Of a stretch of 64,000 nucleotides of DNA, positions 3,964 through 52,569 are shown piece after piece. The notes below the pieces were generated by a model, which saw only the letters and a list, made by a program, of their open reading frames with translations, had not been told where the DNA came from and ran no database searches. The position numbers and the translations under genes are program-made. Position 1 is the stretch's first letter; every line of letters begins with the position of its first letter. The DNA is from Patescibacteria group bacterium (GTDB taxonomy: Bacteria; Patescibacteriota; Patescibacteriia; UBA10025; JAHIVO01): NCBI GenBank assembly GCA_018816445.1, contig JAHIVO010000061.1, positions 305-64,304 on the forward strand, read 5' to 3'.

Positions 3964-4784
3964 TGGAAGCAGAATACGTCATAAAAAATGGTGAATTAAT
4001 TTCCAAGGAAAAGGCCTGTATCTCTGTTTACAATAAGGCCATGTTTTTTGATTTTTGCGTTTATTCAAACATCAAAGTGGTACAGGGCCAGATGATAATG
4101 GCCGAGATAGAAGTAGATCGGCTAATCTCTTCAGCAAAAATAATTGGACTGGATCATAAGTTTAAAAAAGAGGAAATTATTAATTGGGCTAAGCAATTAG
4201 TTGAGAAAAATAATTTACACGACTCATTAATTCGTTTACTGTTAATTGGTCCGGAACAGGATTCTGAAGCGCAGTTATTTTTGTTTCCGGTCGGCCTGAC
4301 TTTCCACCAAAAGCAGTGGTATAAGCAGGGCGCTAAGCTGATTACCTTTCAGGGCGAGCGATTTATGCCCACGGCTAAAGTAAAAAGCCTGTTTATGTCT
4401 TATATGGCTTATAGCCAAGCCAGGAAAGCTGGCGCTTATGATGCGCTCCTAATTGACCGTGATGGGAATATTAGGGAAGGGACACGCTCCAGCTTTTTTG
4501 TTATTAAAGACAATGTGTTAATAGCACCGCCAGCAGAAAAGGTATTGGTCGGAGCCACCCGGACGATTTTAATGGCTATAGTGCCAGATATTATGCAGGT
4601 AAAAGAGGAAGATATCCCCTTAAGCAGGATTAAAGAATATGATGAATATTTTGTGACTGGCACTTCAGTTAAGGTGATGCCGGTTCGGCAGATTGATGAT
4701 ACAGTAGTTAAACAAGGAGAGAGCGAGATGGTTATGAAGTTAAGACAGGCATTTAAGGATTATTGTAAAAAGACAATAGCGTAA
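3964..4784 (+). CDS. Class IV aminotransferase (branched-chain / D-amino-acid aminotransferase family)
   Basis: N-terminal IKNGELISKEKACISVYNKAMFFDFCVYS resembles the class IV N-terminus. EGTRSSFFVIKDN motif. Start chosen at the internal ATG (3964); the track ORF begins at 3945. Confidence 0.6.
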
Positions 4785-4900
4785 TTTAGTATAATAGTTA
4801 TATACAGCTAACCAGGCTGTTTTTTCCTTGACAATAAAAATATTTATGATAATATGCGGGATTAAGAAGATGAATATTTTAAAAGGTATCAAGAGGAATA

Positions 4901-5152
4901 ATGGGCAAAGGAAAATTGGTACAGTTCTCTGAATTGCCCTGGAATAGCTGCTTTCGATTACCAGACGGGGATGAGGTGTTATGGAAACACGCATGTGCTG
5001 TTTATCTCCTCAAATCAAACGGAGGTACGGATGGCTGGTTTCTTGGTTCTGACCATGAGATTTTACCTACTACAGAGGTAGTGTTAGTTGATAAATCTGA
5101 GATAAGCCCTACTGAGATTCCGATAATACAAAATTGCAATGGTGTTACTTGA
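4901..5152 (+). CDS. Hypothetical small protein
   Basis: 83-aa ORF followed by a terminator. No recognisable family. Confidence 0.3.
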   Translation: MGKGKLVQFSELPWNSCFRLPDGDEVLWKHACAVYLLKSNGGTDGWFLGSDHEILPTTEVVLVDKSEISPTEIPIIQNCNGVT

Positions 5153-5167
5153 GATATCCAATTCTCC

Positions 5168-5198
5168 GGGCCCTGCTTTTTCTAAGAGGGCCTTTTTT
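5168..5198 (+). terminator. Rho-independent terminator (GGCCCT...AGGGCC + T6)
   Basis: 6-bp GC stem with a 12-nt loop, followed by TTTTTT. Confidence 0.5.
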
Positions 5199-5283
5199 AT
5201 TTGACTAAATAGTACTTAATGGTATGATAAACTAATTAATAAAAACAAATAAACAAAGGGTTTTTTAACAAGGAGGTGTACAA

Positions 5284-6795
5284 GTGAGTACACAAGAATT
5301 TGATAAGCTGATTGAATTACTTCAGCCAGCAAATCAAAAGGGAAGTATTGCTGCCCGTTTGCATTTTGATGATCAGACAGGCAGTCCACCGGATGAGGAG
5401 GCCAAGAAACAATTAGCCCAGTTAATGGCTCTGGCTGAGCGCGAAGCGCACGAGCTGTTTACAGCCGATTCGATTAGCCAAGCACTCACTGGACGTACCG
5501 GCTTATCCTTAACCGAGCAGCGCATGGTTGACCGTTTACAACTTTCTCATGATATGGCCAAACGGATACCGCCGGAGTTCGTACAGAAGCAGAGAGAGCA
5601 TATTCAGGCCGCTAATCGGGTCTGGATCGAGGCGCGTCAAAAAAGCGACTTTACCCTGTTCCAAAATACTTTTACAAAATCGGTGGAACTGGCGCGGGAA
5701 GAAGCGATCATGCTGGGGGCTGATTCCGGCCGGCCGGAAACTTATTATCCGGCCTTACTGCCGATTTACGAGCCGGGCATGGATTTTGCGCGTCTAAGAG
5801 AAATCATTGAGGCAGTGCAGGGACCGACCGTTGACTTGCTAGGCCGGATCACCAGTTCCGGCAAGGAGTTCACTGATAAGCTGTGGCGCGGTTATTTCGA
5901 AATTGACCGGCAAAAGTCTTTGGGTCAGACTGCCGCTTGGCTAATGGGCTATGATTTTAAGCGGGGCATACTGAAAGTCACAGTCCATCCGTTCATGTCC
6001 ACTGTCGGTTTGAATGATTGTCGGATTACTACTCGCTATGACCCGACCTACCTGCCTCAAGCACTGGGCGGCGTGATGCATGAGGCTGGTCACGGACTGT
6101 ATGAGCAGAATGTGGCTGAAGCGATTCGCCGTTTCATCACCGTACCGCTGGTTCATTCGCACGGCATCCATGAATCAAGTTCTCTGTTGTGGGAATGCTT
6201 TGTCGGGCGCAGTAAGCCGTTCCTGCAGTTCTTCCACCCGATCCTGACGGCTCTTTTTGAGCAGTACCGGGATGTGTCAGTGGATGAGCTGTATCAGGCA
6301 ATTAACCGGGTTATGCCCAGTTTTATTCGTGTGGAAGCGGATGAACTGACTTACAACCTGCACATTATTCTCAGGTTCGGTATGGAGCCGGAAATTTTGG
6401 CCGGCAATATCAAACCAGAGGATGTGCCAGCAGAGTGGAACCGCCGGTTTAAAGAGCTCTTTGGCATCGCGGTTGACACTGATGCAAATGGTTGTTTGCA
6501 AGATATCCACTGGTCGCACGGGTACTTCGGGTATTTCCCGACGTATTTGCTCGGCAAGCTGGGCGCGGCTCAGCTCTTTGCCGCCTTTGTTAAGGCTGTA
6601 CCAAGTTGGCAGGAGCAGTTCCGAATGGGCAATTTCAGAGTTTTGCTTGATTGGCTGTGTAAGAACGTCTATCCCTATGGACATGTTTCGGCTATGGACG
6701 ATCTGATGGTTAAAGCCACAGGTGAGAAGCTGAATCCGAAATATTGGTTTGATCATCTGGAGGAGAAGTTTGGCCAATTGTATGGCTTGAATTAG
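5284..6795 (+). CDS. M32 carboxypeptidase (Taq-type thermostable carboxypeptidase family)
   Basis: HEAGHGLYEQ (HExxH), GYFGYFPTY and DxRxT-like motifs. GTG start preceded by AAGGAGG. Confidence 0.8.
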   Translation: MSTQEFDKLIELLQPANQKGSIAARLHFDDQTGSPPDEEAKKQLAQLMALAEREAHELFTADSISQALTGRTGLSLTEQRMVDRLQLSHDMAKRIPPEFVQKQREHIQAANRVWIEARQKSDFTLFQNTFTKSVELAREEAIMLGADSGRPETYYPALLPIYEPGMDFARLREIIEAVQGPTVDLLGRITSSGKEFTDKLWRGYFEIDRQKSLGQTAAWLMGYDFKRGILKVTVHPFMSTVGLNDCRITTRYDPTYLPQALGGVMHEAGHGLYEQNVAEAIRRFITVPLVHSHGIHESSSLLWECFVGRSKPFLQFFHPILTALFEQYRDVSVDELYQAINRVMPSFIRVEADELTYNLHIILRFGMEPEILAGNIKPEDVPAEWNRRFKELFGIAVDTDANGCLQDIHWSHGYFGYFPTYLLGKLGAAQLFAAFVKAVPSWQEQFRMGNFRVLLDWLCKNVYPYGHVSAMDDLMVKATGEKLNPKYWFDHLEEKFGQLYGLN

Positions 6796-6994: not shown

Positions 6995-7261
6995 ATGCCA
7001 AATTACGATGGTCAAGGTCCCGGATGGGGCGGCGGACCAGGCGCTGGCTGGGGATATGGTCCGTGCACCTGCCCGCCATTGGCTTCGCCAACAGGCGAAG
7101 GCAGGCGGGGCGCTGGTCGCGGTTGGGGACGCGGCTGGAGACGTAGAATTAAATGGAGTAAAGAGGATGAGATGAAAATGCTGGAAGATGAAGAAGCGGC
7201 TATAACAGAAGAGCTGGCTGAAATCCAAAAAGCCAAGCAGGAACTTAAAGCTGAACAATAA
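6995..7261 (+). CDS. Glycine-rich DUF5320-like protein with C-terminal coiled coil
   Basis: MPNYDGQGPGWGGGPGAGWGYGPC... followed by EDEMKMLEDEEAAITEELAEIQKAKQELKAEQ. Paralog at 21486-21806. The family assignment is from memory of the MPrgDGTGPmG...coiled-coil pattern. Confidence 0.55.
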   Translation: MPNYDGQGPGWGGGPGAGWGYGPCTCPPLASPTGEGRRGAGRGWGRGWRRRIKWSKEDEMKMLEDEEAAITEELAEIQKAKQELKAEQ

Positions 7262-7439
7262 CACCAGTCCCACTTGTTAATTGACAAGAATTAGGCTAGA
7301 GTATAAGAAAACAAGTGGGGCTAATTCTAGCCATTTAATTAAAATATCAAAATACAAAATTTAAATGGCAATTAATAATTTAGTTTTTAATTTTTTCAAT
7401 GTTATTTTCAATTTTTATAATTAAATTTTCATTTTTATT

Positions 7440-7715
7440 ATGACCAGGCCTCGTTTATGCAGAAGAGTAAAATTCAGACCGCGGACTACCTTTTTTAAGC
7501 CGCGCGGAGTTCCTTTGCGATCTTTGGATATTGTTGAATTATCAAAAGAAGAAGTTGAAGCTATGCGTTTAAAAAATATTTCAGGCTTAGACCAAACCGA
7601 ATGTGCCAAAGCTATGCGTACTTCACAAAGCACTTTCCAGCGCATATTATCTTCTGCTTATAATAAAATCAGCCAGGCAATAATTAAAGGCAAGGCAATT
7701 TCAATTCAAAAATAA
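7440..7715 (+). CDS. DUF134/UPF0251-family predicted DNA-binding protein
   Basis: MTRPRLCRRVKFRPRTTFFKPRG...ELSKEEVEAMRLKNISGLDQTECAKAMRTSQSTFQRIL, sigma-70 region-4-like HTH. Paralog at 22109-22384. Confidence 0.7.
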   Translation: MTRPRLCRRVKFRPRTTFFKPRGVPLRSLDIVELSKEEVEAMRLKNISGLDQTECAKAMRTSQSTFQRILSSAYNKISQAIIKGKAISIQK

Positions 7716-7717
7716 TA

Positions 7718-8857
7718 ATGCTTAATAAGATATTAAAATTTATATTTATATTCTCGACACTGTTGTTTTTTGCATTGCCTGTTTCAGCTAAAGATAACGA
7801 TAGTGTTGAAATTAACTTTTTTTACAGCGATACCTGCCCTCATTGCGCCAAAGAAGAGGTTTTTTTAGATGGGCTGGAACAGGAATTAGGCGATACAATC
7901 TTAATTAGCCGATATGAGGTGTCTGATAAGGATAATTTGGAGATATTTGAGAAGTTTATTGAATCGTCAGGCCAGGAAGTTAGGGGCGTGCCGGCCACTT
8001 TCATCGGCGATAAGGAAGTAATTGTGGGGTTCAACTCCAGCACTGATACAGGCCAGCGCATCAGGAATGTAATTAATGAATGCTTAAGTGAGTGTCCGGC
8101 CGATAATTCATTATTAGTTGATTTGCCGTTGTTCGGTGAAACGGATTTATCAAAATATTCATTGTTCGGTTTAACCGCCGTTGTGGCAGCCATTGACGGA
8201 TTCAATCCCTGCGCTATGTGGGTGCTGATTATCCTGATTGGATTTTTATTGGGCATGGAAAACCGGCGGCGCATGTGGACACTGGGCCTGACGTTTATTG
8301 CGGCCTCGGCTTTGGTTTACTTTATATTTTTAGCCGCCTGGCTGAAGTTTTTTCAGTTTATCGGGGTAGTCAGGCCGGTGCAGATTATTATTGGCTTAGT
8401 GGCTATTAGCGTGGCTATATATTATTTCCGGCGGTTTTGGAAATCACGTCCGGGTGAGTGTGAAGTGACCAATGTGGATCAGCGCCGCAAGATTACAGTG
8501 CGCATGAAAGCGGTTATTCAAAAGCGTTCTTTATTACTTGCCCTAATAGGAATTATTGGATTAGCTTTTGTGGTCAATTTGATTGAACTAGCCTGTTCAG
8601 CCGGTCTGCCTGCTATTTTTGCGCAGGTGCTGGCCTTAAGCGACTTGCCGTCCTGGCAGTATTATTTCTATCTGTTATTATATGTGATTATTTTCATGCT
8701 TGATGACATGATTGTATTTGCCATAGCCATGATAACTATGAAAGCGGCTGGCACTACAGGTAAGTACAGCCGTTATGCCACTTTAATCGGAGCTATTGTA
8801 ATACTGTTTTTAGGACTTTTGTTAATGTTAAAGCCAGAGTGGATTATGTTTGGTTAG
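7718..8857 (+). CDS. Membrane thiol-disulfide oxidoreductase: N-terminal thioredoxin-fold (CPHC) fused to a CcdA/DsbD-like transmembrane domain
   Basis: Signal peptide, FYSDTCPHCAKEE, then a polytopic domain with Cys in TM segments (DGFNPCAMW, LACSAGLP). Confidence 0.45.
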   Translation: MLNKILKFIFIFSTLLFFALPVSAKDNDSVEINFFYSDTCPHCAKEEVFLDGLEQELGDTILISRYEVSDKDNLEIFEKFIESSGQEVRGVPATFIGDKEVIVGFNSSTDTGQRIRNVINECLSECPADNSLLVDLPLFGETDLSKYSLFGLTAVVAAIDGFNPCAMWVLIILIGFLLGMENRRRMWTLGLTFIAASALVYFIFLAAWLKFFQFIGVVRPVQIIIGLVAISVAIYYFRRFWKSRPGECEVTNVDQRRKITVRMKAVIQKRSLLLALIGIIGLAFVVNLIELACSAGLPAIFAQVLALSDLPSWQYYFYLLLYVIIFMLDDMIVFAIAMITMKAAGTTGKYSRYATLIGAIVILFLGLLLMLKPEWIMFG

Positions 8858-10672: not shown

Positions 10673-10879
10673 TCTAGGGTAGTTTCCGCCAAAGGCGGAT
10701 CCGCCTATGGCGGACAATTGGCCCCGCCACAATGTTCTGGGATAGTTTAATTGGTAAAACCCTGCACTGTTAATGCAGTGATCCTGGTCCGAGTCCAGGT
10801 CCCAGAGTTTTGTGGCGGGGTAAAATAGAACGCTCCGCTGTTAACGGAGAGGTTGGAGGTCCAAGTCCTCCCCCTAGAG
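10673..10879 (+). tRNA. Outer tRNA-Asn (GTT)-like gene interrupted in the D-arm by ~135 nt that contain the complete inner tRNA-Asn
   Basis: Acceptor TCTAGGG (10673-10679) pairs with CCCTAGA (10872-10878). Anticodon stem CTCCG/CGGAG with loop CTGTTAA, T-arm GGAGG-TCCAAGT-CCTCC. D-stem GTTT (10682-85)/GAAC (10828-31). Insert clamped by CCCCGCCACA (10722-31)/TGTGGCGGGG (10811-20). Confidence 0.35.
10736..10807 (+). tRNA. tRNA-Asn (GTT), inner gene of a nested pair
   Basis: Cloverleaf by hand: acceptor TCTGGGA/TCCCAGA, D-stem GTTT/AAAC, anticodon stem CTGCA/TGCAG with loop CTGTTAA, T-arm CCTGG-TCCGAGT-CCAGG. 72 nt, no encoded CCA. T-loop has C at position 55, which is unusual. Confidence 0.65.
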
Positions 10880-11134
10880 TTCAGCGGGTAGATAAGTTAA
10901 CGGTAGTTTAGGTTCGCCCAATCATCCGATTGGGCGCCCCGTCGTATGACGGGGCAAGCCCTCCCCCTAGAGTTCGTCAGGTAGTTAAATTGTATAATAT
11001 TTTGGTTCGCCGTGAACCACTAAAGGGTTCACGGCGCCATGTACCCTTGAGTGGTACATGGCGATCCCAGCCCCCAGAGTTTAGCAGGCTTGTCCCGTAG
11101 GAGCGTCAGCGACTTACGGGATTCGAATCCTGCT

Positions 11135-11446
11135 CCCCGAGCCAATTGCCGAAAGTGACAACTTCTGTGGATAAGTCATAAAAGCCTTTAAATATCGGGT
11201 GAAAGTTGTACCCACTAGTTTTCTGTTTCGCAACTAAAATCTCCCCACCCAAGTAGGATTCGAATTTCTCATTCTTTTTAGCCTAAAATTCTTCCTTGTC
11301 CATCAGCAGTTTGAAGAGGTTTATAAGGTTTTCAGCCATGAGCCAGGCTTCGTCATCCGATATTTCTTCCCCATATTGCTTTTTGTAGATTTCCTTGAAT
11401 TTATCTATGTGATGTTGTTCAAGAGGCATTGATATCACCCCCTCAC
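11135..11446. repeat. Direct repeat copy 1 (~312 bp, ~90% identical to 15443-15756), encodes a 48-aa ORF
   Basis: Hand alignment of the two copies. They bracket the DGR-containing modules. Confidence 0.8.
11283..11429 (-). CDS. Conserved 48-aa protein (MPLEQHHIDKFKEIYKKQYGEEISDDEAWLMAENLINLFKLLMDKEEF)
   Basis: Strong RBS GAGGGGGTGATATCA before the ATG. The two copies differ at 12 nt but only 1 aa, which indicates purifying selection. Below the 60-aa track cutoff. Confidence 0.6.
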   Translation of the reverse strand: MPLEQHHIDKFKEIYKKQYGEEISDDEAWLMAENLINLFKLLMDKEEF

Positions 11447-12370: not shown

Positions 12371-12451
12371 TATAAATAACCAAAAATACATCTCATTAAA
12401 TTGGGGGATGTCCTTTCTTCGTTGTACAACTTATTTTTAATTAAGTTGTTA

Positions 12452-12494
12452 CTTCCCGCAAATAGGTTCTAACGTCCTCTACGACCCCGAGCCA
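12452..12494. repeat. Module-boundary motif copy M1 (CTTCCCGCAAA-GGTTCTAACGTCCTCTACGACCCCGAGCCA)
   Basis: Same ~45-nt motif also at 15410-15451, 17093-17138 and 28241-28310. A variant is at 11101-11146. Confidence 0.6.
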
Positions 12495-12610
12495 TCATTT
12501 CACTCCCATAAACATTGACCTTTCTGACATAGGCAAGTAGGACACTCGAACCTTCACTAGAAAAGCCAGTAAATACAGGGATATAAATTATCATCTGTGG
12601 ATCACTGATC

Positions 12611-12639
12611 TTGACAGATTGCCGTATCCATGGTAGCAT
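12611..12639 (+). promoter_or_regulatory. Sigma-70-like promoter TTGACA-N17-TAGCAT upstream of the DGR target gene
   Basis: Perfect -35 and a 4/6 -10 with 17-nt spacing, about 190 nt upstream of the target start codon. Confidence 0.4.
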
Positions 12640-12830
12640 CCATTGTTACTTTCCGCACTTTGTAATCCAAGAGCTAAAATCACGTTACCTCTTCATTTAA
12701 GAGCGGCTCCTTGCTGTAATCTCCGGACAGAGATTTCCAGAGAGCTGTTCTTAAATAACCGAAAGGTATCGCCTGGAAACCACAGTGGTTGACAGGCAGA
12801 TGTTTTTCAAAAACCAAGGAGGATGACGCC

Positions 12831-13448
12831 ATGGCAAAGACCATGACCCCATCTATGACTGATGGCCAGATTGACAAGGTTGTCGAAAACATCACAGCAG
12901 GGTTTCGCAAGAGACTTCGCGATCACAGGGATGAACTATCTTCAGACACAGTTCAAACCGTCCTCGGCCAGAAGGATTTTATTTCTGCCCTGTTCGCCGA
13001 GTTTCGCCAGCGCGTGGAAGCGGTCAGCAACATGATCGTTCGTAAGGTCAAGGTGGATCGCACCAGAACCTCGCAAGAGGCGCTGGACGTGACAGGACGT
13101 AAGCAGTATACCGACGACGATGTTGTGAAGTCCATGCCGAACGGCAAGGGCGATGAAACCGAGGTTATTTTCTTCAAGGTAGGTCGTACAATAAGTGACG
13201 ACGATCTGGAGAAAGAATATGAACTGCGCGGCCTGGTACCGGCTGATCCGTATTCACTCTGTGCCGTAAATGGAAATGATCCGGCGTTTGCCGATGAACA
13301 TCCCAATGGCACCCACTGGAAAGATTCCAACGGAAAATGGTGTTTCGCCTCCTTCGGCCGGTGGATCGACGAGCGCGGGGTGAGCGTCGACCGCGACGGT
13401 CGTGACTGGGCTGACTGCTGTTGGTTTGCCGGTGTCCGCAAGAATTAG
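12831..13448 (+). CDS. DGR target (variable) protein; C-terminal ligand-binding-type domain carries the VR
   Basis: AGGAGG RBS 8 nt before ATG 12831. C-terminus ...FGRWIDERGVSVDRDGRDWADCCWFAGVRKN is encoded by the VR. Confidence 0.75.
   Translation: MAKTMTPSMTDGQIDKVVENITAGFRKRLRDHRDELSSDTVQTVLGQKDFISALFAEFRQRVEAVSNMIVRKVKVDRTRTSQEALDVTGRKQYTDDDVVKSMPNGKGDETEVIFFKVGRTISDDDLEKEYELRGLVPADPYSLCAVNGNDPAFADEHPNGTHWKDSNGKWCFASFGRWIDERGVSVDRDGRDWADCCWFAGVRKN
13340..13441 (+). repeat. DGR variable repeat (VR)
   Basis: 102-nt homolog of TR 13778-13879. The 20 differences are all at TR adenines; every other position is identical. Confidence 0.85.
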
Positions 13449-13498
13449 GCACTTGGTCGCTTGAACGCATGGCACTTGATTGGTGCCCTTGGATACTA

Positions 13499-13528
13499 CA
13501 CTCTGCATGAGCTTGCTCATGCAGAGTG
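13499..13528 (+). terminator. Perfect 13-bp hairpin (CACTCTGCATGAG-CTTG-CTCATGCAGAGTG) + T-run, 58 nt downstream of VR
   Basis: Read directly. Candidate target-gene terminator and/or the DGR VR-flanking hairpin used in homing. Confidence 0.55.
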
Positions 13529-13777
13529 ATTTTTATCTGACAACGTGATATAATTTTATTTGGAGAGTAAGCGATTCAGCTTGCGGGCACGCCTGCAGGC
13601 GGCTGAAATCCGGATCATTGGGAAAGCCGGAATGCCTGTGGTTATGGCGACAGGCAGCGCGCTCCTTGATTCAATACCAACAAAGATACTTGGTGCAATA
13701 TGCTGGCGGAGCTTTTCTCCCGAATAAAATACAGCCCGGAGAGAATTCAACGGGCAGTGGTACGGAAGGCATGTTGC

Positions 13778-13879
13778 ATAATTCGCCAACTTCAACCGGT
13801 GGAACGACGAGCGCAAGGTGAACGTCAACCGCAACGATAATGACTGGAATGACAACTGTTGGTTTGCCGGTGTCCGCAA
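13778..13879 (+). repeat. DGR template repeat (TR), noncoding, rich in AAC/AAT codons in the VR frame
   Basis: In the VR frame TR reads FNRWNDERKVNVNRNDNDWNDNCWFAGVRN. 20 of its 30 adenines are substituted in VR. Confidence 0.85.
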
Positions 13880-13901
13880 CTATCTTTTTTGGAGCAATCC
13901 G

Positions 13902-14309
13902 CTATTTTGGCGGATTGTTTTTCATCAGTTGTTTTCGCCACCCGCCCAGCATTTTTCCAACCTCTACCAATGGAGGCGTGAGTTGGCTATATTTTCTGGT
14001 ATCCAGAACTTTCATTTCCCAGGCGATCTGCAGGAAAAATTTTAGGGCATCAAGCTTGGTTGAAGCACGCTCCACTACAGAGAGCTTCTTTTCCCTGGGT
14101 GAGTATCCGGCCAGAAGAATTAGTTCCAGAGCATCATAAAACAGCAGGTCAATCTTAGACCCGAGCGTAAAGCGGGACAGCCGCGGCAGGTTCGTCAAAT
14201 TCGCGTGCCATAACCTATACCCTGCCGCCAGTTTCTGTATAATGGGAATATCGACCGACAAATCCCTGGGGGGGGTAATCTTATTAATATGAAAACGCTT
14301 TTGACTCAT
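13902..14309 (-). CDS. avd: Avd-like accessory variability determinant (four-helix-bundle protein)
   Basis: LLAGYSPREKK (compare NIAEGYGR), FFLQIAWEMKVL and LVEVGKMLGGWRKQL resemble Avd / 23S-rRNA-IVS proteins. On the strand opposite to TR and RT, overlapping the RT start by 21 nt. Confidence 0.6.
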   Translation of the reverse strand: MSQKRFHINKITPPRDLSVDIPIIQKLAAGYRLWHANLTNLPRLSRFTLGSKIDLLFYDALELILLAGYSPREKKLSVVERASTKLDALKFFLQIAWEMKVLDTRKYSQLTPPLVEVGKMLGGWRKQLMKNNPPK

Positions 14310-15284
14310 GGGTTTAAGGATATTGTATCGATAGACAATCTATTGTCAGCCTGGCGTGAGTTTGTCCCGGGCAAAGCCGGGAAAAAGGATGTCAGGGAAT
14401 TTTACCGCCATCTGGCTGATAATATTATATCACTCCACGAGGAGCTTGAAAACGACACTTACCGACATGGCGGGTATATTCACTTCAGGATCTCCGATCC
14501 CAAGCCTAGGGATATTCACAAGGCAACCATCCGGGACAGGCTGGTGCACCATGCCATCTATCGCGTACTCTACCCCTTTTTAAGTGATACATTCATCGCC
14601 GATTCATATTCCTGCCAGTTGGGAAAGGGAACGCATCGGGCTATCAGAAGATTCCGGACTTTCGCCGGTCAGGTAAGCAGAAACAATACCCAAACCTGCT
14701 GGATATTAAAATGCGATATCAGGAAATTCTTTGCCAGCATTGACCATGCTATATTGATGAATATGCTAAGTGAGTATATTACTGACCAAAGAATTAATAC
14801 TTTATTGCGCGAGGTTATCCAGAGTTTCTGCTGGCAACCGGGCAAAGGTTTGCCGCTTGGCAATCTGACATCCCAGTTGTTCGTTAATGTGTATATGAAT
14901 GAGTTTGACCAATTCATGAAACATACATTAAAAGTCAAGTATTATCTGCGTTATGCTGATGATTTTGTTGTAATGTCTGATAACAGATCGTGGTTAAAAG
15001 GACTCATACCGATTATCAGTAATTTTCTGACGGTCAAACTCAAACTCACGCTTCATCCGAGCAAGGTATTTATTAAAACACTGGCTTCAGGAGTTGATTT
15101 TCTGGGCTGGGTGCATTTTCCGTATCATCAGGTACTCCGCACTTCCTCCAAAAGGCGCATGTTAAACAGGATTACTGAAAACCCGGAAACATCTACTATG
15201 CAGTCATATTTGGGTCTACTACAACATGGCAATGCATACAAGCTGGCAGAGCAGGTGATTAATCAGACCTATCTATGGAAGTAA
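14289..15284 (+). CDS. DGR reverse transcriptase
   Basis: RT motifs 1-7, YADDFVV (YxDD). The DGR-specific LGNLTSQLFVNVY ([I/L]GxxxSQ) replaces the retroviral QGxxxSP. N-terminal NLLSAWREF...VHHAIYRVL is typical of DGR RTs. Confidence 0.85.
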   Translation: MKTLLTHGFKDIVSIDNLLSAWREFVPGKAGKKDVREFYRHLADNIISLHEELENDTYRHGGYIHFRISDPKPRDIHKATIRDRLVHHAIYRVLYPFLSDTFIADSYSCQLGKGTHRAIRRFRTFAGQVSRNNTQTCWILKCDIRKFFASIDHAILMNMLSEYITDQRINTLLREVIQSFCWQPGKGLPLGNLTSQLFVNVYMNEFDQFMKHTLKVKYYLRYADDFVVMSDNRSWLKGLIPIISNFLTVKLKLTLHPSKVFIKTLASGVDFLGWVHFPYHQVLRTSSKRRMLNRITENPETSTMQSYLGLLQHGNAYKLAEQVINQTYLWK

Positions 15285-15409
15285 CCTTATCCACATTTAT
15301 TGTTGGAATACGCAATTGCAAACAAAGTGATTGAAGTATACAGTAAGATTGGGGCACGAGAATATTTCTTAATTTATTTAAAACAGTTTTCAGGAGAATT
15401 AAGTTGTCG

Positions 15410-15451
15410 CTTCTCGCAAAAAAGTTCTAACGTCCTCTACGACCCCGAGCC
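15410..15451. repeat. Module-boundary motif copy M2
   Basis: CTTCTCGCAAAAAGTTCTAACGTCCTCTACGACCCCGAGCCA, immediately followed by direct-repeat copy 2. Confidence 0.6.
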
Positions 15452-15756
15452 AATTGCCTAGAACGACAACTTACTGTGGATAAGTCATATTAACCTTTAA
15501 ATATCGGGTGAAAGTTGTACCCAAGAGTTTTCTATTTACGCAATTAAAATCTCCCCACCCAGGTAGGATTCGAATTTCTCTATCTTTTTAGTCTAAAATT
15601 CTTCCTTATCCATCAGCAGTTTGAAAAGATTTATCAAGTTATTGGCCATGAGCCAGGCTTCGTCGTCCGATATTTCTTCTCCATATTGTTTTTTGTAGAT
15701 TTCCTTAAATTTATCTATGTGATGTTGTTCAAGAGGCATTGGTTATCACCCCCTTT
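15443..15756. repeat. Direct repeat copy 2 (~312 bp)
   Basis: Aligned to 11135-11446 by hand. Confidence 0.8.
15593..15739 (-). CDS. Conserved 48-aa protein, copy 2 (differs at one residue, E33N)
   Basis: Same RBS and frame as copy 1. 10 of the 12 nucleotide differences are synonymous. Confidence 0.6.
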   Translation of the reverse strand: MPLEQHHIDKFKEIYKKQYGEEISDDEAWLMANNLINLFKLLMDKEEF

Positions 15757-15823: not shown

Positions 15824-16153
15824 TTAAATATTTTTAAGCTCTTCAAAATTAACCTCTGGAATTTCAGTGTTTAGTTTTCGTTTGCTGTTCTTTTGTTTTT
15901 CAACAATTGCAAACATCTGATTTACTTCAGGAGATATGTTTTGATAGCTCACTTTTTTAAAGTTCCAGAATTTGTTATGCTGGTCTTTAAGTTGTAGTAA
16001 TTCATGCGCGGCCGAGCGAGAAATAAAAGAGATATTTGAGAAATCCAAAACTACACGACGGTCTGTAGTTTCCTGAATCCGCTGTTTTATAATGCTAATT
16101 ACATCCCTCGATGAGAGCATTGGGGATATATCTTTTAATGCAATATTATTCAT
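15824..16153 (-). CDS. STAS-like / DUF4325-type anti-sigma-factor-antagonist-like protein
   Basis: RVVLDFSNISFISRSAAHELL has a STAS/DUF4325-like signature. Lies downstream of the GHKL gene in the same operon. Confidence 0.45.
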   Translation of the reverse strand: MNNIALKDISPMLSSRDVISIIKQRIQETTDRRVVLDFSNISFISRSAAHELLQLKDQHNKFWNFKKVSYQNISPEVNQMFAIVEKQKNSKRKLNTEIPEVNFEELKNI

Positions 16154-16194
16154 ATATAATCATTATATCACAGTTATATTGTGGATATCCAATT

Positions 16195-17076
16195 TTACTC
16201 TGTATAGGGTGTTATGTCAATAGGACCTTTGGGATAAGGTATTTGATAGGAGATAATAACTCCTTGCCAGTAGAAATTTGGGAGCTGTACAATTACTTGT
16301 TTACCTTGTGAACCTAAAAAGACGCTATTACCAGTGAGAAGTAAAAATTGGCCACCTAGTGCTTTCCTAACTACCAACTGTGATGTACTTAATCCGTAAC
16401 CTCTTCCTTCCATTTTTTTGGTTGACTGTCCTTGAAATGCACGTCGAATTGCTTCATCGTCACCAACTTCTTGTTTCTGAACATCAAAGTATCTTCCAGC
16501 AATGCCCCTGCCGGTGTCAATTATACAAATATCTAATAACTTCTTCTTCGGATAATGTTGTGCAAATATCCAACCATAATTCTTTTGGCTATGTTCGAAT
16601 ATGTTGCCGACTAATTCGCTAATAGGGTACAAGATTGCATTGCTTGCACCCGCTACATTACCTGTTAGTTTTTCGATAATTCTATAAAAATTACTTTCCA
16701 GACCTTGTCTACTTGTTTCGTCTGCTTTCTTAAGAAAACCAATTGGAATTGTATAGCTTAATAAGCTCAATTGATTGGCATTCTCTATTCCATTAGGAAA
16801 AGAAATATCTCTTAAATATCTCTTTACTTGTTCTGATTGAGGTTGTTGATAATTGCTCTGATATTCTCTAACGTGGGCACACACAGTAAGTGTTAATAAA
16901 GGGTGCATCCAAGTACAGGACGATAATCGAAAATTAACTGGATTTTGTTTTATCCCTTTAAAAGTATCATATAGAGCTTTGATTTGATCTTTAAGGTCGT
17001 CAGATTTAGGATTGTTGACCCTTACTTCCTTTAGCATTAATATTTTATTATAGATTATTTGTATATAGTATACCAT
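16195..17076 (-). CDS. GHKL-family ATPase (histidine-kinase-like ATP-binding domain) with ~140-aa N-terminal extension
   Basis: N-box ELVGNIFEHS, G1 box IDTGRGI, G2 box GRGYGLS. Confidence 0.55.
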   Translation of the reverse strand: MVYYIQIIYNKILMLKEVRVNNPKSDDLKDQIKALYDTFKGIKQNPVNFRLSSCTWMHPLLTLTVCAHVREYQSNYQQPQSEQVKRYLRDISFPNGIENANQLSLLSYTIPIGFLKKADETSRQGLESNFYRIIEKLTGNVAGASNAILYPISELVGNIFEHSQKNYGWIFAQHYPKKKLLDICIIDTGRGIAGRYFDVQKQEVGDDEAIRRAFQGQSTKKMEGRGYGLSTSQLVVRKALGGQFLLLTGNSVFLGSQGKQVIVQLPNFYWQGVIISYQIPYPKGPIDITPYTE

Positions 17077-17092
17077 CTAGTAATTAATCTTT

Positions 17093-17138
17093 TAAGTTGT
17101 CTCTTCCCGCAAAAAAGTTCTAACGTCCTCTACCACCC
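17093..17138. repeat. Module-boundary motif copy M3 with an inserted GC hairpin CACCCAGAGCTGGGTG
   Basis: CTTCCCGCAAAAAAGTTCTAACGTCCTCTAC + hairpin. The 3' CCCCGAGCC part is missing. Confidence 0.55.
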
Positions 17139-17290
17139 AGAGCTGGGTGCTTATGCGCAGTGAAAGACGAAATATTGTTTCGTCTTCTTTGGATTGATTT
17201 TAATCCCTTTATGAGGGATAATATAGGCGGGATTACTTGGTTATTATTGAAAATCATGCTGAAGCGAAAAATTAAAATAATCAATAATTT

Positions 17291-17866
17291 ATGGCTAAAA
17301 AGATAAAACCTAATTGGGAAGCTTATCCCGTATCTGATAATGCCTTAGATGAAATGAATTTTCTTTTACTTTGCCCGAGATGTTTAAAAAAGACAGACCT
17401 TACTGATTATACCGTGAAAGTAGGAAAGAAAAAAAGAAAGAAAAAAATGACCATGCCTATCTGCCAGCCGTGCAAGAAGGCGGCGGTTCGGAAATTAAGA
17501 AAAGAGATGTTAATAATATTTGCTATTTGGGCTCCGGTGTCCTGGGGTCTTTTTATAGTTTTAGCAAAAACAGGTATTCTGGGAAGAACTATAGAAGCCT
17601 TGGGATTTCCTTGGGGGCTATTTCTTCCGGCGATTTTGCTTGGGATACCCCTGTATGCCCTGTACCTGCTTATTAGTTGCTTTATTCCTCCGAAAAAAGG
17701 AGGTTGGCCAATTGAATTGAAAGAACCATTATGGTCTCTCATGTTTGAAAACGAGACTTATGTCAGAGAGTTTACAAAGGCCAACGTCCAAAGGCTTAAT
17801 AGTGTTACGAATTACAACGTCGAGCCGCCTGAAGAGTTAATGAAAGATGGTCGTCTGCTTATCTAA
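17291..17866 (+). CDS. Hypothetical membrane protein with N-terminal CxxC...CxxC zinc-ribbon-like region
   Basis: LLCPRCLKK...MPICQPCKK followed by three hydrophobic helices. Confidence 0.4.
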   Translation: MAKKIKPNWEAYPVSDNALDEMNFLLLCPRCLKKTDLTDYTVKVGKKKRKKKMTMPICQPCKKAAVRKLRKEMLIIFAIWAPVSWGLFIVLAKTGILGRTIEALGFPWGLFLPAILLGIPLYALYLLISCFIPPKKGGWPIELKEPLWSLMFENETYVREFTKANVQRLNSVTNYNVEPPEELMKDGRLLI

Positions 17867-18022: not shown

Positions 18023-18050
18023 GTATGATTATTATTATTATAAATCATGC
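18023..18050. promoter_or_regulatory. Putative NikR operator GTATGA-N16-TCATGC
   Basis: Matches the E. coli NikR site GTATGA-N16-TCATAC at 11 of 12 half-site positions. Lies ~190 bp upstream of nikR. Only a TCATGC half-site is present in the related repeat at 17237-17290. Confidence 0.4.
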
Positions 18051-18242
18051 TGAAACGAAAAACTAAAAAAATTAATAAAGCGGATCCGCCTTTGGTGAAG
18101 ATTTTGGCCCACGGAGTTCGGGGTTTATTATGTTGTTTTGATTTAAGGTGAGAGTCTCAGAGCACCGCGGCCGCGGGGTGAAAATCCCGCCATATGGCGG
18201 GGCGACTCGCGAAGTTAGGATCTGATGTGATATAATTAAATT

Positions 18243-22495: not shown

Positions 22496-22900
22496 ATGGT
22501 TAAACAAAACCAGGAAGATTATTTGCGAGCAATCTATAACTTTTGGGAACACCATGATAGAGTTATTCGTTCCGTGGATATTGCCGGGTATTTGAATATT
22601 TCCAAAGCGTCAGTTTCTCAAATGTTAAAAAAGCTGGCTCAACAGAGGTACGTAAAAATTAAGCCTTATTCATATGTATTATTTACCACTAAAGGTTTAG
22701 CATTGGCCAAAAGATTGATGTACAAACATAGAATTATTGAAGTTTTTTTAAGGGAGATACTGGGTATTAATAAAAAGAATGTTCATGAGGAGGCAAACAG
22801 ACTCGAACACGGTTTTTCTGATGAGACAATCAGGAAATTAGCAAAATTTATAAATAATCCGAAATATTGCCCAGGTGGTAAAAAAATTCCAAAATTATAA
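22496..22900 (+). CDS. DtxR/MntR-family metal-dependent transcriptional repressor
   Basis: EDYLRAIY, ISKASVSQMLKKL HTH and a dimerisation helix. Confidence 0.75.
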   Translation: MVKQNQEDYLRAIYNFWEHHDRVIRSVDIAGYLNISKASVSQMLKKLAQQRYVKIKPYSYVLFTTKGLALAKRLMYKHRIIEVFLREILGINKKNVHEEANRLEHGFSDETIRKLAKFINNPKYCPGGKKIPKL

Positions 22901-51446: not shown

Positions 51447-51523
51447 TGGTAGCAGGGGGGGGATTCGAACCCCCGGCCTAAGGCTTATGAGTCCTTCGCT
51501 CTAACCAACTGAGCTACCCTGCC
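51447..51523 (-). tRNA. Elongator tRNA-Met or tRNA-Ile2 (anticodon CAT), CCA encoded
   Basis: Folded by hand: acceptor GGCAGGG/CCCTGCT (G1-U72), D-arm GCTC-AGTTGGTTA-GAGC, anticodon loop CTCATAA, T-arm GGGGG-TTCGAAT-CCCCC. Confidence 0.75.
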
Positions 51524-51529
51524 GCGTCA

Positions 51530-51589
51530 GAATCGTACTTCGCCTTCCGTTTCCAGTAATGGCTGAAAACTACAGGCTTCGTACGATTC
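51530..51589 (-). promoter_or_regulatory. Conserved ~60-nt structured leader upstream of tRNA-CAT (copy 1)
   Basis: About 85% identical to 52135-52194. Terminal 9-bp inverted repeat GAATCGTAC...GTACGATTC. Confidence 0.4.
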
Positions 51590-51684
51590 TTCTTTGCCTC
51601 GCTCAAACTACTATTTGAGCTCGGTTTTTATTTTAATAGTTGACTTACCAGCCAAAACTTCCAAGGGAAACGAAGGTTGGTTAT

Positions 51685-52052: not shown

Positions 52053-52127
52053 TGGTTGCCGGGGGGGGATTCGAACCCCCGACCTCGGGATTATGAGCCC
52101 CGCGAGCTGCCACTGCTCTACCCGGCG
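52053..52127 (-). tRNA. Initiator tRNA-fMet (CAT), CCA encoded
   Basis: C1xA72 mismatch, three consecutive G-C pairs in the anticodon stem (CGGGG/TCCCG), anticodon loop CTCATAA, T-arm GGGGG-TTCGAAT-CCCCC. Confidence 0.75.
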
Positions 52128-52134
52128 GCGTTAG

Positions 52135-52194
52135 GAATCGCACTCCGCCTTCCGTTTCCAGTAGTGGCTGAAAACTGCAGGCTGCGTGCGTTTC
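52135..52194 (-). promoter_or_regulatory. Conserved ~60-nt structured leader upstream of tRNA-CAT (copy 2)
   Basis: GAATCGCACTCCGCCTTCCGTTTCCAGTAGTGGCTGAAAACTGCAGGCTGCGTGCGTTTC. Confidence 0.4.
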
Positions 52195-52387
52195 CTCCTT
52201 TCCTCGCAAATATCTCTTAACTTTTAGCTTGGATTTTTTTATTTAGTTAAAATCAAAGTATCTCTAGTATTATAAGTTATTAAAGATAAAATAGCAAGGT
52301 TTAGGTATTTATTGGTGCCGGGAGAGACCCCGTATAATTTCTCACTACGTTCAAAATATACGGGGCAGGGAGTCTCACTAATTCACA

Positions 52388-52569
52388 TGCCGAAGGTGGG
52401 AGTCGAACCCACACGAGGTTGCCCTCATGCGATTTTGAGTCGCACGCGCCCGCCTGCCTCTGCCGAGAGGGAGAGTCGAACTCCCATGAGGTTGCCCCCG
52501 CAGGATTTTGAGTCCTGTGCGTCTACCAGTTCCGCCATCTCGGCAAAGGCAGGCGGGCGCCACTTCGGC
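52388..52569 (-). tRNA. Outer tRNA-Leu (CAA)-like gene with the D-arm replaced by a 13-bp clamp helix that carries the inner tRNA-Leu
   Basis: Acceptor GCCGAAG (rc 52563-69)/CTTCGGC (rc 52389-95). Clamp GCGCCCGCCTGCC/GGCAGGCGGGCGC. Anticodon stem TGCGA/TCGCA with loop CTCAAAA, T-arm GTGGG-TTCGACT-CCCAC. Confidence 0.4.
52461..52544 (-). tRNA. tRNA-Leu (CAA), inner gene of a nested pair
   Basis: Acceptor GCCGAGA/TCTCGGC, D-arm GCGGAACTGGTAGACGC, anticodon stem CAGGA/TCCTG with loop CTCAAAA, 15-nt variable arm, T-arm GGGAG-TTCGACT-CTCCC. 84 nt. Confidence 0.75.

Follow-up and report, generated by a model that had tools for sequence, protein, structure and literature searches.

A VapK/CapK-type kinase-STAS gene pair as a candidate mobile cassette in a tRNA-linked array of a Patescibacteria genome

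The stretch of DNA analysed here (hereafter the window) covers 64,000 nucleotides (nt) of contig JAHIVO010000061.1 in the Patescibacteria assembly GCA_018816445.1, and represents a chromosomal stretch of a candidate phyla radiation (CPR) bacterium, with NikR/CbiMN, deoxyhypusine synthase, SpoU methylase and M32 peptidase among the flanking genes. On its minus strand lie two adjoining genes, one for a GHKL-type Ser kinase and one, directly downstream, for a STAS-domain protein of 109 amino acids (aa), which together are set between two copies of a 56-nt direct repeat and beside a diversity-generating retroelement (DGR). We favour, with moderate confidence, a reading of these genes as a self-contained and mobile VapK/CapK-type kinase/substrate switch whose output would act in trans.

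The kinase, its STAS partner and their boundaries

Both open reading frames (ORFs), of 293 and 109 aa, were found where the first-pass annotation, made from the sequence alone, had placed them (Table 1). The kinase has 81 close homologues of ~280 aa each; because one of these, a database protein from a Patescibacteria assembly (P0001), is 100% identical to it and 280 aa long, and the other 80 have about the same length, translation probably starts at Met14 (17037) and yields a 280-aa protein, a start with which the promoter-like site is compatible. The AlphaFold2 (AF2) model of the kinase, with a predicted local distance difference test score (pLDDT) of 93, comprises an N-terminal beta-alpha-beta-alpha-beta-alpha domain (strands E3-6, E34-37 and E62-64; helices H15-26, H46-59 and H69-77), the elements of which run parallel to those of the partner, followed by a Bergerat fold, and Pfam HATPase_c was matched above its gathering score at residues 152-266 (E = 2.3e-8). 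The N-, G1- and G2-boxes that had been read from the letters proved invariant, with E141, N145, H149, D174, G176, G178, R212, G213 and G215 present in 74/74 homologues. P46 and K165 are kept in 73/74 and 71/74 sequences, respectively; at position 43 (codon 16909-16911), 62 of the 74 have W, 11 have F and one has R. The wider kinase family amounts to 4,935 clusters (50% identity, E <= 1e-3). A PDB sequence search with the kinase profile returned nothing relevant, only a thioredoxin at E = 0.16, and NCBIfam gave no meaningful match. The sole PADLOC match, DISARM DrmA, was rejected as local, with residues 146-258 aligned to positions 138-250 of a 1750-position model; it spans the GHKL domain alone, and the protein is therefore no large helicase-type DrmA.

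The ~140-aa N-terminal domain had been described as novel, a description replaced here by comparison with a kinase family reported in 2026 (Chambers et al., EMBO J 2026; PMC13373217). In that family, CapK (HTH-STAS-GHKL; HTH, helix-turn-helix) is paired with CapS (STAS-wHTH; wHTH, winged HTH), and VapK (STAS-GHKL, 302 aa) with VapS (STAS and a short tail, 116 aa) and the PIN toxin VapC (PMC13373217). The STAS-like and GHKL domains of CapK and VapK together make a sensor groove for single-stranded DNA (ssDNA), and CapK, activated by ssDNA, phosphorylates a conserved Ser on helix alpha2 of its STAS substrate; the stimulation was obtained in vitro for CapK only and inferred for VapK (PMC13373217). 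The capKS genes are transcriptional regulators of immune operons, and vapKSC is an antiphage toxin-antitoxin (TA) system in which sensing falls to the kinase and toxicity to the PIN protein (PMC13373217).

Using the VapK, VapS and CapK sequences from the supplementary files of that paper, we aligned the kinase family to VapK over both domains (hhalign probability 95.7%, E = 1.1e-8, 228 columns, residues 18-263), and phrog_3364 was matched over nearly its full length by both the kinase (E = 8.8e-34) and VapK (E = 3.6e-38). The alignment to CapK covered the GHKL core only (probability 80.5%). In these alignments the catalytic Asn of CapK, N218, corresponds to N145 and CapK K239 to K165, the N- and G1-boxes and the YxxK hairpin are matched to those of CapK, and W43 takes the position of the ssDNA-stacking CapK W68 and VapK F54, at which W or F is found in 73/74 sequences; the position of CapK K237 is occupied by P163, so that only one of the two groove lysines is matched. 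The 109-aa partner also weakly matches positions 20-87 of phrog_3364. The direct profile-profile test of the N-terminal domain against the partner was weak (P = 0.0075, 26 columns), with the register identical, and the STAS assignment therefore rests on the topology of the model and on homology to VapK. The kinase belongs to this known family; as modelled and aligned, it joins an N-terminal STAS-like domain to a GHKL kinase domain of the SpoIIAB/RsbW type, which is the VapK/CapK architecture.

The earlier description of the smaller protein as STAS-like was borne out by its AF2 model (pLDDT 83), which has a STAS fold, and by its top Foldseek matches, all of them STAS domains (SpoIIAA, TM1442, RsbS and SLC26 STAS domains). 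At the level of Pfam profiles, STAS (E = 5e-4) and DUF4325 (E = 4e-3) both remained under their gathering scores, whereas VapS is a strong DUF4325 member (E = 2.7e-17), and on such sequence comparisons the partner appears to be a STAS subfamily separate from VapS. This subfamily comprises at least 604 clusters and has the invariant motifs SSRD, LDF and SRSAAH, with S45, R46, S47, A49 and H50 identical in 45/45 sequences. Ser45 (codon 16019-16021), inside the invariant SRSAAH motif, is the predicted phospho-acceptor and aligns with the VapS phosphosite S48 in a joint alignment.

The boundary motifs flagged in the first-pass annotation are copies of the 56-nt direct repeat, present three times in the window against zero expected by chance, all of which finish in CCCCGAGCCA, the ten bases that also close the tRNA-like element at 11080-11142, or in a near variant; copies 2 and 3, spaced 1693 nt apart, bracket the kinase-STAS module. 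The order of the array is [arm and two membrane-protein genes], repeat 1, [DGR], repeat 2, [arm, STAS and kinase], repeat 3. Kinase, STAS gene and a 48-aa ORF would form a ~1.7-kb cassette with its own predicted promoter and terminator in a tRNA-linked array, of which a tRNA-like 3' end further upstream is the probable original attachment (att) site. A second copy of the 48-aa ORF (11283-11429, minus strand) differs by one residue (98% protein identity), and neither Pfam nor PHROG holds a match to the encoded protein. The 56-nt repeat had no Rfam match even at E <= 1, and its folding was significantly better than that of shuffled sequences for copy 2 only (z = -3.4). These results give no support for a conserved structure, and the repeat was rejected as a candidate RNA gene or attC-like site.

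Table 1. Features of the kinase-STAS cassette and of the array that holds it (window coordinates)
Feature	Position	Strand	Basis or remark
Kinase gene, VapK-like STAS-GHKL Ser kinase	16195..17037 (ORF to 17076)	-	ORF, homologues, AF2, hhalign, phrog_3364
Predicted N-terminal STAS-like sensor domain, residues 1-128	16654..17037	-	AF2 secondary structure, alignment to VapK STAS domain
C-terminal GHKL (Bergerat) kinase domain	16198..16653	-	
GHKL boxes: N-box E141/N145/H149 (N145 codon 16603-16605); G1 D174-G176-G178; G2 R212-G213-x-G215; K165			
STAS-domain gene, putative substrate/partner, 109 aa	15824..16153	-	AF2, Foldseek, residue conservation
56-nt repeat copy 1, left edge of DGR cassette	12439..12494	+	
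56-nt repeat copy 2, partner-side edge; also right edge of DGR cassette	15397..15452	+	
56-nt repeat copy 3, kinase-side cassette edge	17090..17145	+	
312-nt arm, starts at CCCGAGCCA core, holds 48-aa ORF and terminator	15443..15754	+	duplicated at 11135-11443, 90% identity
tRNA-like 3' end finishing in CCCCGAGCCA	11080..11142	+	downstream of tRNA-Asn and degenerate tRNA-Asn copy
48-aa ORF downstream of partner, same orientation, within 312-nt arm	15593..15739	-	
Terminator-like hairpin closing the kinase-STAS-small ORF unit	15553..15568	-	
Promoter-like site TTAAAA-17-TATACT with TG, upstream of Met14, overlapping edge of repeat copy 3	17067..17095	-	consensus match only

Recurrence of the pair and its flanking duplications in other genomes

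An exact protein look-up gave 8 neighbourhoods in which the kinase gene is always followed by a gene for 110-120 aa and the flanks are wholly different each time, and a scan of species-representative genomes added 54 more loci, nearly all from Patescibacteria and spread over many classes. The synteny set drawn up from these consists of 58 non-redundant loci carrying the pair, besides the window. Pairing is obligate in this set: in 57/58 loci the next gene downstream, in the same orientation, encodes the partner, and the remaining locus is broken off by the end of its contig. Many relatives at 34-42% identity were found on IMG/VR viral contigs; the five viral loci inspected all have the same arrangement and a partner of the present subfamily rather than of the VapS subfamily, and on viral or prophage contigs the pair adjoins lysis-region genes.

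The pair is autonomous with respect to its surroundings, since no third gene family recurs at a fixed position across the 58 loci. The 143 genes lying at most two positions from the pair fall into 129 Pfam families, the commonest of which (AbiEii, Fic/SoFic, DUF2779 and DUF3800) have three members each. AbiE, SoFic, HicA, restriction-modification systems and a type VI retron occur among these neighbours, and so do housekeeping genes such as rplJ/rplL, SecDF and CTP synthase. A PIN family is missing from the list of the 25 commonest Pfam families among the 143 neighbours, and in the 58 loci the pair is linked neither to a sigma factor or PP2C phosphatase nor to a PIN toxin or HTH partner; a sigma-70-like cluster occurs in four loci at scattered offsets. 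The retron, in locus L037 (= L010), occupies 4112-5417 immediately upstream of the kinase-STAS pair and was recognised by HTH_VI (E = 1.5e-12) and RT_VI (E = 1.7e-22).

Flanking direct repeats, under strict criteria (at least 25 nt, E <= 1e-5), were detected for 14 of the 40 testable cassettes and for 0 of 49 control gene pairs from the same loci (Fisher p = 3e-6), and the earlier view of the pair as an isolated cassette bounded by motifs, which in the window is the interval between repeat copies 2 and 3, generalises in this way to other genomes. The duplicated segments vary by genome from 27 to 156 nt and have recognisable targets, namely the 3' 37 nt of a tRNA-Lys-like gene in L060, the rplL 3' end in L008 and L019, and terminator hairpins in L021, L036 and L045; in L021 and L045 the ~1.3 kb between the repeats contains only the two genes of the pair. 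The closest kinase homologue (54% identity) comes from L005, where two copies of a 31-nt direct repeat, 1,768 nt apart, bracket kinase, STAS gene and small ORF; the left copy lies inside the 3' end of a large serine recombinase gene, the only recombinase that adjoins a cassette. The 56-nt repeat of the window was not found in the other loci. We take the pair to be a mobile cassette at the confidence given to the reading as a whole; the duplications constitute a computed insertion signature, and the mechanism of mobilisation is a matter of inference.

Among the loci, the 48-aa ORF was found in L005 and L006 only, and its homologues in L005 flank the recombinase-kinase-STAS block. They belong to a family of acidic proteins of ~48 aa (MPLEQHHIDKFKEIYKKQYGEE...), the L005 copies of which lie at 4085-4243 and 7320-7538, one upstream of the large serine recombinase and the other downstream of the STAS gene; this protein could be an accessory factor of mobile elements. 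The partners of the window and of its L005 relative deviate from the otherwise near-invariant C-terminal motif MLRIVAANRAxPK (R82 to A, N87 to Q and P91 to K), and the sub-clade with this deviation coincides with the presence of the 48-aa ORF. In L060, the tRNA-Lys(UUU)-like gene (5866-5947) carries a 16-nt hairpin after the D-arm and is not called by ARAGORN, and its 3' 37 nt recur right after the STAS gene (7261-7297), marking the insertion site of the cassette.

Several observations concern the array in the window. A tRNA-Asn gene (10736-10807) is followed by a degenerate second tRNA-Asn (10817-10875; 28.9 bits, with an Rfam gathering score of 29 bits) and then, as far as 11142, by three structured units, each of which finishes with CCC(C)(T)AGAGTT or CCCCGAGCCA; the last of them resembles a T-arm (GCAGG...TTCGAAT CCTGC) broken by an inserted hairpin. 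The structured units of 10735-11142 may be what repeated integration events have left behind, or else tRNA genes of an unusual CPR kind. Beside the cassette, a 47-nt direct repeat (17241-17287 and 18032-18078, 87% identical) brackets a gene for a 191-aa membrane/zinc-ribbon-like protein (17291-17866), which may be another small inserted unit. Two contigs of the same strain break inside the 312-nt duplication.

Readings of the kinase-STAS module

In the proposed switch, the 280-aa Ser kinase would sense its signal through the groove formed by the STAS-like and GHKL domains, as in CapK and VapK. Because W/F43 and K165 are conserved, ssDNA arising from phage replication or DNA damage is the most likely trigger. 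The activated kinase would phosphorylate the STAS partner on Ser45, where helix alpha2 begins, and thereby change what the partner binds. Since the pair has no linked effector, neither a PIN toxin as in vapKSC nor a wHTH as in CapS, the output would have to act in trans, by way of the kinase itself once freed or of a conserved component of the host or phage, and the module may serve a stress or anti-phage role. The signalling or defence-type function guessed at in the first-pass annotation agrees with membership in the VapK/CapK family.

Several points weigh against this reading. Activation by ssDNA is experimental for CapK only, the member to which the kinase family aligns over no more than the GHKL core. 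The partner compares weakly with VapS (hhalign probability 11% over 12 columns), and the two fall into different families, phrog_20761 and phrog_9989, respectively. A pairwise hidden Markov model alignment to TM1442 and the ungapped VapS extension place the phosphosite opposite R46 instead of S45, and because these pairwise alignments shift by one residue, the acceptor could be S47 rather than S45. Defence or TA genes make up only about a fifth of the neighbours. Within the window, neither the cassette nor its vicinity holds a recombinase, and no empty-site variant of the locus was found among the other contigs, which all come from the same strain. Given that no effector is linked, the biological output is a guess.

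The best-surviving alternative makes the pair a minimal TA, abortive-infection or addiction module, in which the kinase itself would be the toxin, phosphorylating essential host or phage proteins when activated, and the STAS protein a pseudo-substrate antitoxin, with stabilisation of the cassette or exclusion of phage as the main benefit. The two-gene, autonomous and mobile organisation with no linked effector would suit such a module, as would the presence on viral and prophage contigs beside lysis-region genes, the AbiE, SoFic, HicA, restriction-modification and type VI retron neighbours, and the kinship with vapKSC, itself an antiphage TA system (PMC13373217). Housekeeping genes, not defence islands, surround many of the insertion sites, which argues against this account. 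Moreover, we know of no GHKL Ser kinase that acts as a toxin. In VapKSC the kinase is the sensor and the toxic role belongs to the PIN protein (PMC13373217). We regard the toxin account as plausible but rather unlikely.

A more far-reaching proposal would see in the pair a new minimal two-gene immune or addiction system, in which the ssDNA-sensing kinase would be sensor and effector at once or would reach a universally conserved host target through the STAS protein, carried by a cassette that would lack a recombinase of its own, insert at the 3' ends of tRNA genes, of rplL and of terminators and leave duplications of 27-156 nt. This proposal is speculative and in our judgement doubtful; if it were true, the cassettes might depend for their movement on factors supplied in trans, conceivably large serine recombinases acting with the 48-aa protein, and cassette exchange of this kind would be a mechanism not yet described for Patescibacteria.

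Classical partner switching, with the kinase as the anti-sigma factor of a distal sigma factor and the STAS protein as the anti-anti-sigma antagonist, on the pattern of RsbW/RsbV and SpoIIAB/SpoIIAA, appears distinctly improbable. The best PDB matches of the partner are SpoIIAA and TM1442, and some databases name its homologues 'anti-anti-sigma regulatory factor', both of which speak for this account. The kinase, however, has in its N-terminal STAS-like domain a part that RsbW and SpoIIAB lack, and the conserved synteny with a sigma factor by which an ordinary anti-sigma factor was to be recognised is absent from the 58 loci, as neither a sigma factor nor a PP2C phosphatase is syntenic with the pair and the sigma-70-like cluster is scattered. 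Horizontal mobility, variable insertion sites and occurrence on phage contigs are likewise atypical of a core sigma-factor regulator.

That the pair is an accessory of the adjacent DGR, regulating for example retrohoming or the variable receptor, is very improbable: the pair directly adjoins the DGR and one and the same 56-nt repeat bounds both units, but no homologue of the DGR reverse transcriptase (RT), Avd or target occurs in any of the 58 other loci (0/58), the pair is transcribed convergently to the RT and set apart from it by a repeat copy and a terminator, and the only other RT neighbour among the loci is the type VI retron of L037, which is not a DGR. The adjacency, which had been taken as a possible sign of an accessory function, is incidental because 0/58 loci hold a DGR homologue, and no link between the two was detectable.

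The DGR comprises a target gene (12789-13448) with its variable repeat (VR, 13344-13441), a template repeat (13782-13879), Avd (13902-14309, minus strand) and the RT (14289-15284). It sits entirely between repeat copies 1 and 2 (12439-15452) and itself looks like another cassette of the tRNA-linked array. About 60 nt downstream of the VR lies an inverted repeat (13499-13528) with perfectly matched 14-nt arms (CACTCTGCATGAGC/GCTCATGCAGAGTG) 2 nt apart; at this position DGRs often have a hairpin or cruciform that promotes retrohoming.

The VapK/CapK family has so far been characterised only with a linked output, either a wHTH repressor or a PIN toxin. The present clade is large (at least 604 partner clusters), has no linked output and is concentrated in the reduced genomes of Patescibacteria, with further members on phage contigs, which raises the question of what a sensor kinase of the ssDNA type acts upon when no output is encoded alongside. 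The flanking duplications, consistent as they are, offer a rare view of small accessory cassettes, the DGR included, moving in CPR genomes, and annotation of the DGR should not count the kinase-STAS pair as an accessory gene. In the literature searched, we found no description of the effector-less two-gene form, of its dominance in Patescibacteria, of the apparently distinct partner subfamily or of behaviour as an inserted cassette, and no link between Patescibacteria and anti-sigma antagonists; the papers found on DUF4325 were not informative.

Elsewhere in the window, duplicated stretches of 200-280 nt with 70-73% identity lie ~14.5 kb apart (6856-7053/21360-21544 and 7464-7745/22133-22415), upstream of ORFs 7718-8857 and 22496-22900, and are possibly small genes, or else paralogous regions with a leader or regulatory function. 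Two tRNA-Met genes are contained in a 157-nt duplication (51447-51602 and 52053-52207, 80% identical), and ARAGORN called two overlapping tRNA-Leu(CAA) genes (52388-52463 and 52460-52545), of which Rfam backs the second only.

Comparison with known systems

Arrays of cargo cassettes linked to tRNA genes and carrying partial att repeats are known, for example, from tycheposons and from satellite or cis-mobilisable elements. The array of the window resembles tycheposon-type arrays in its tandem cassettes downstream of a tRNA or tRNA-like gene, in its conserved arms with variable cargo, and in bounding direct repeats that share the tRNA-like 3' core CCCCGAGCCA. It differs from them in having no integrase in or near the array, and in other genomes the cassettes have duplicated various targets, rplL 3' ends and terminators among them, over lengths of 27 to 156 nt.

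The RsbW/RsbV resemblance noted in the first-pass annotation held up. The SpoIIAB/SpoIIAA and RsbW/RsbV pairs are the best structural matches of both proteins, and the logic by which a Ser kinase phosphorylates a STAS protein at the N-terminus of helix alpha2 would be shared. The likeness ends with the extra STAS-like domain of the kinase, with the absence of a linked sigma factor or phosphatase, and with the mobile and phage-borne character of the pair. CapK-CapS has in common with the module a GHKL Ser kinase with a STAS sensor domain and a STAS substrate gene immediately downstream; unlike CapK, the present kinase begins at the STAS domain without an N-terminal HTH, its 109-aa partner carries no wHTH, and no conserved immune operon follows.

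Relative to vapKSC, the cassette lacks VapC/PIN or any other conserved third gene, its partner, apparently of another STAS subfamily, has the SRSAAH motif and belongs to phrog_20761 where VapS belongs to DUF4325 and phrog_9989, and its clade is almost exclusive to Patescibacteria. The likenesses to vapKSC are a STAS-GHKL kinase of similar length (280 versus 302 aa), with homology over both domains and in the same PHROG, and a ~110-aa STAS partner with a short C-terminal tail, encoded immediately downstream and bearing an invariant Ser at the position of VapS S48.

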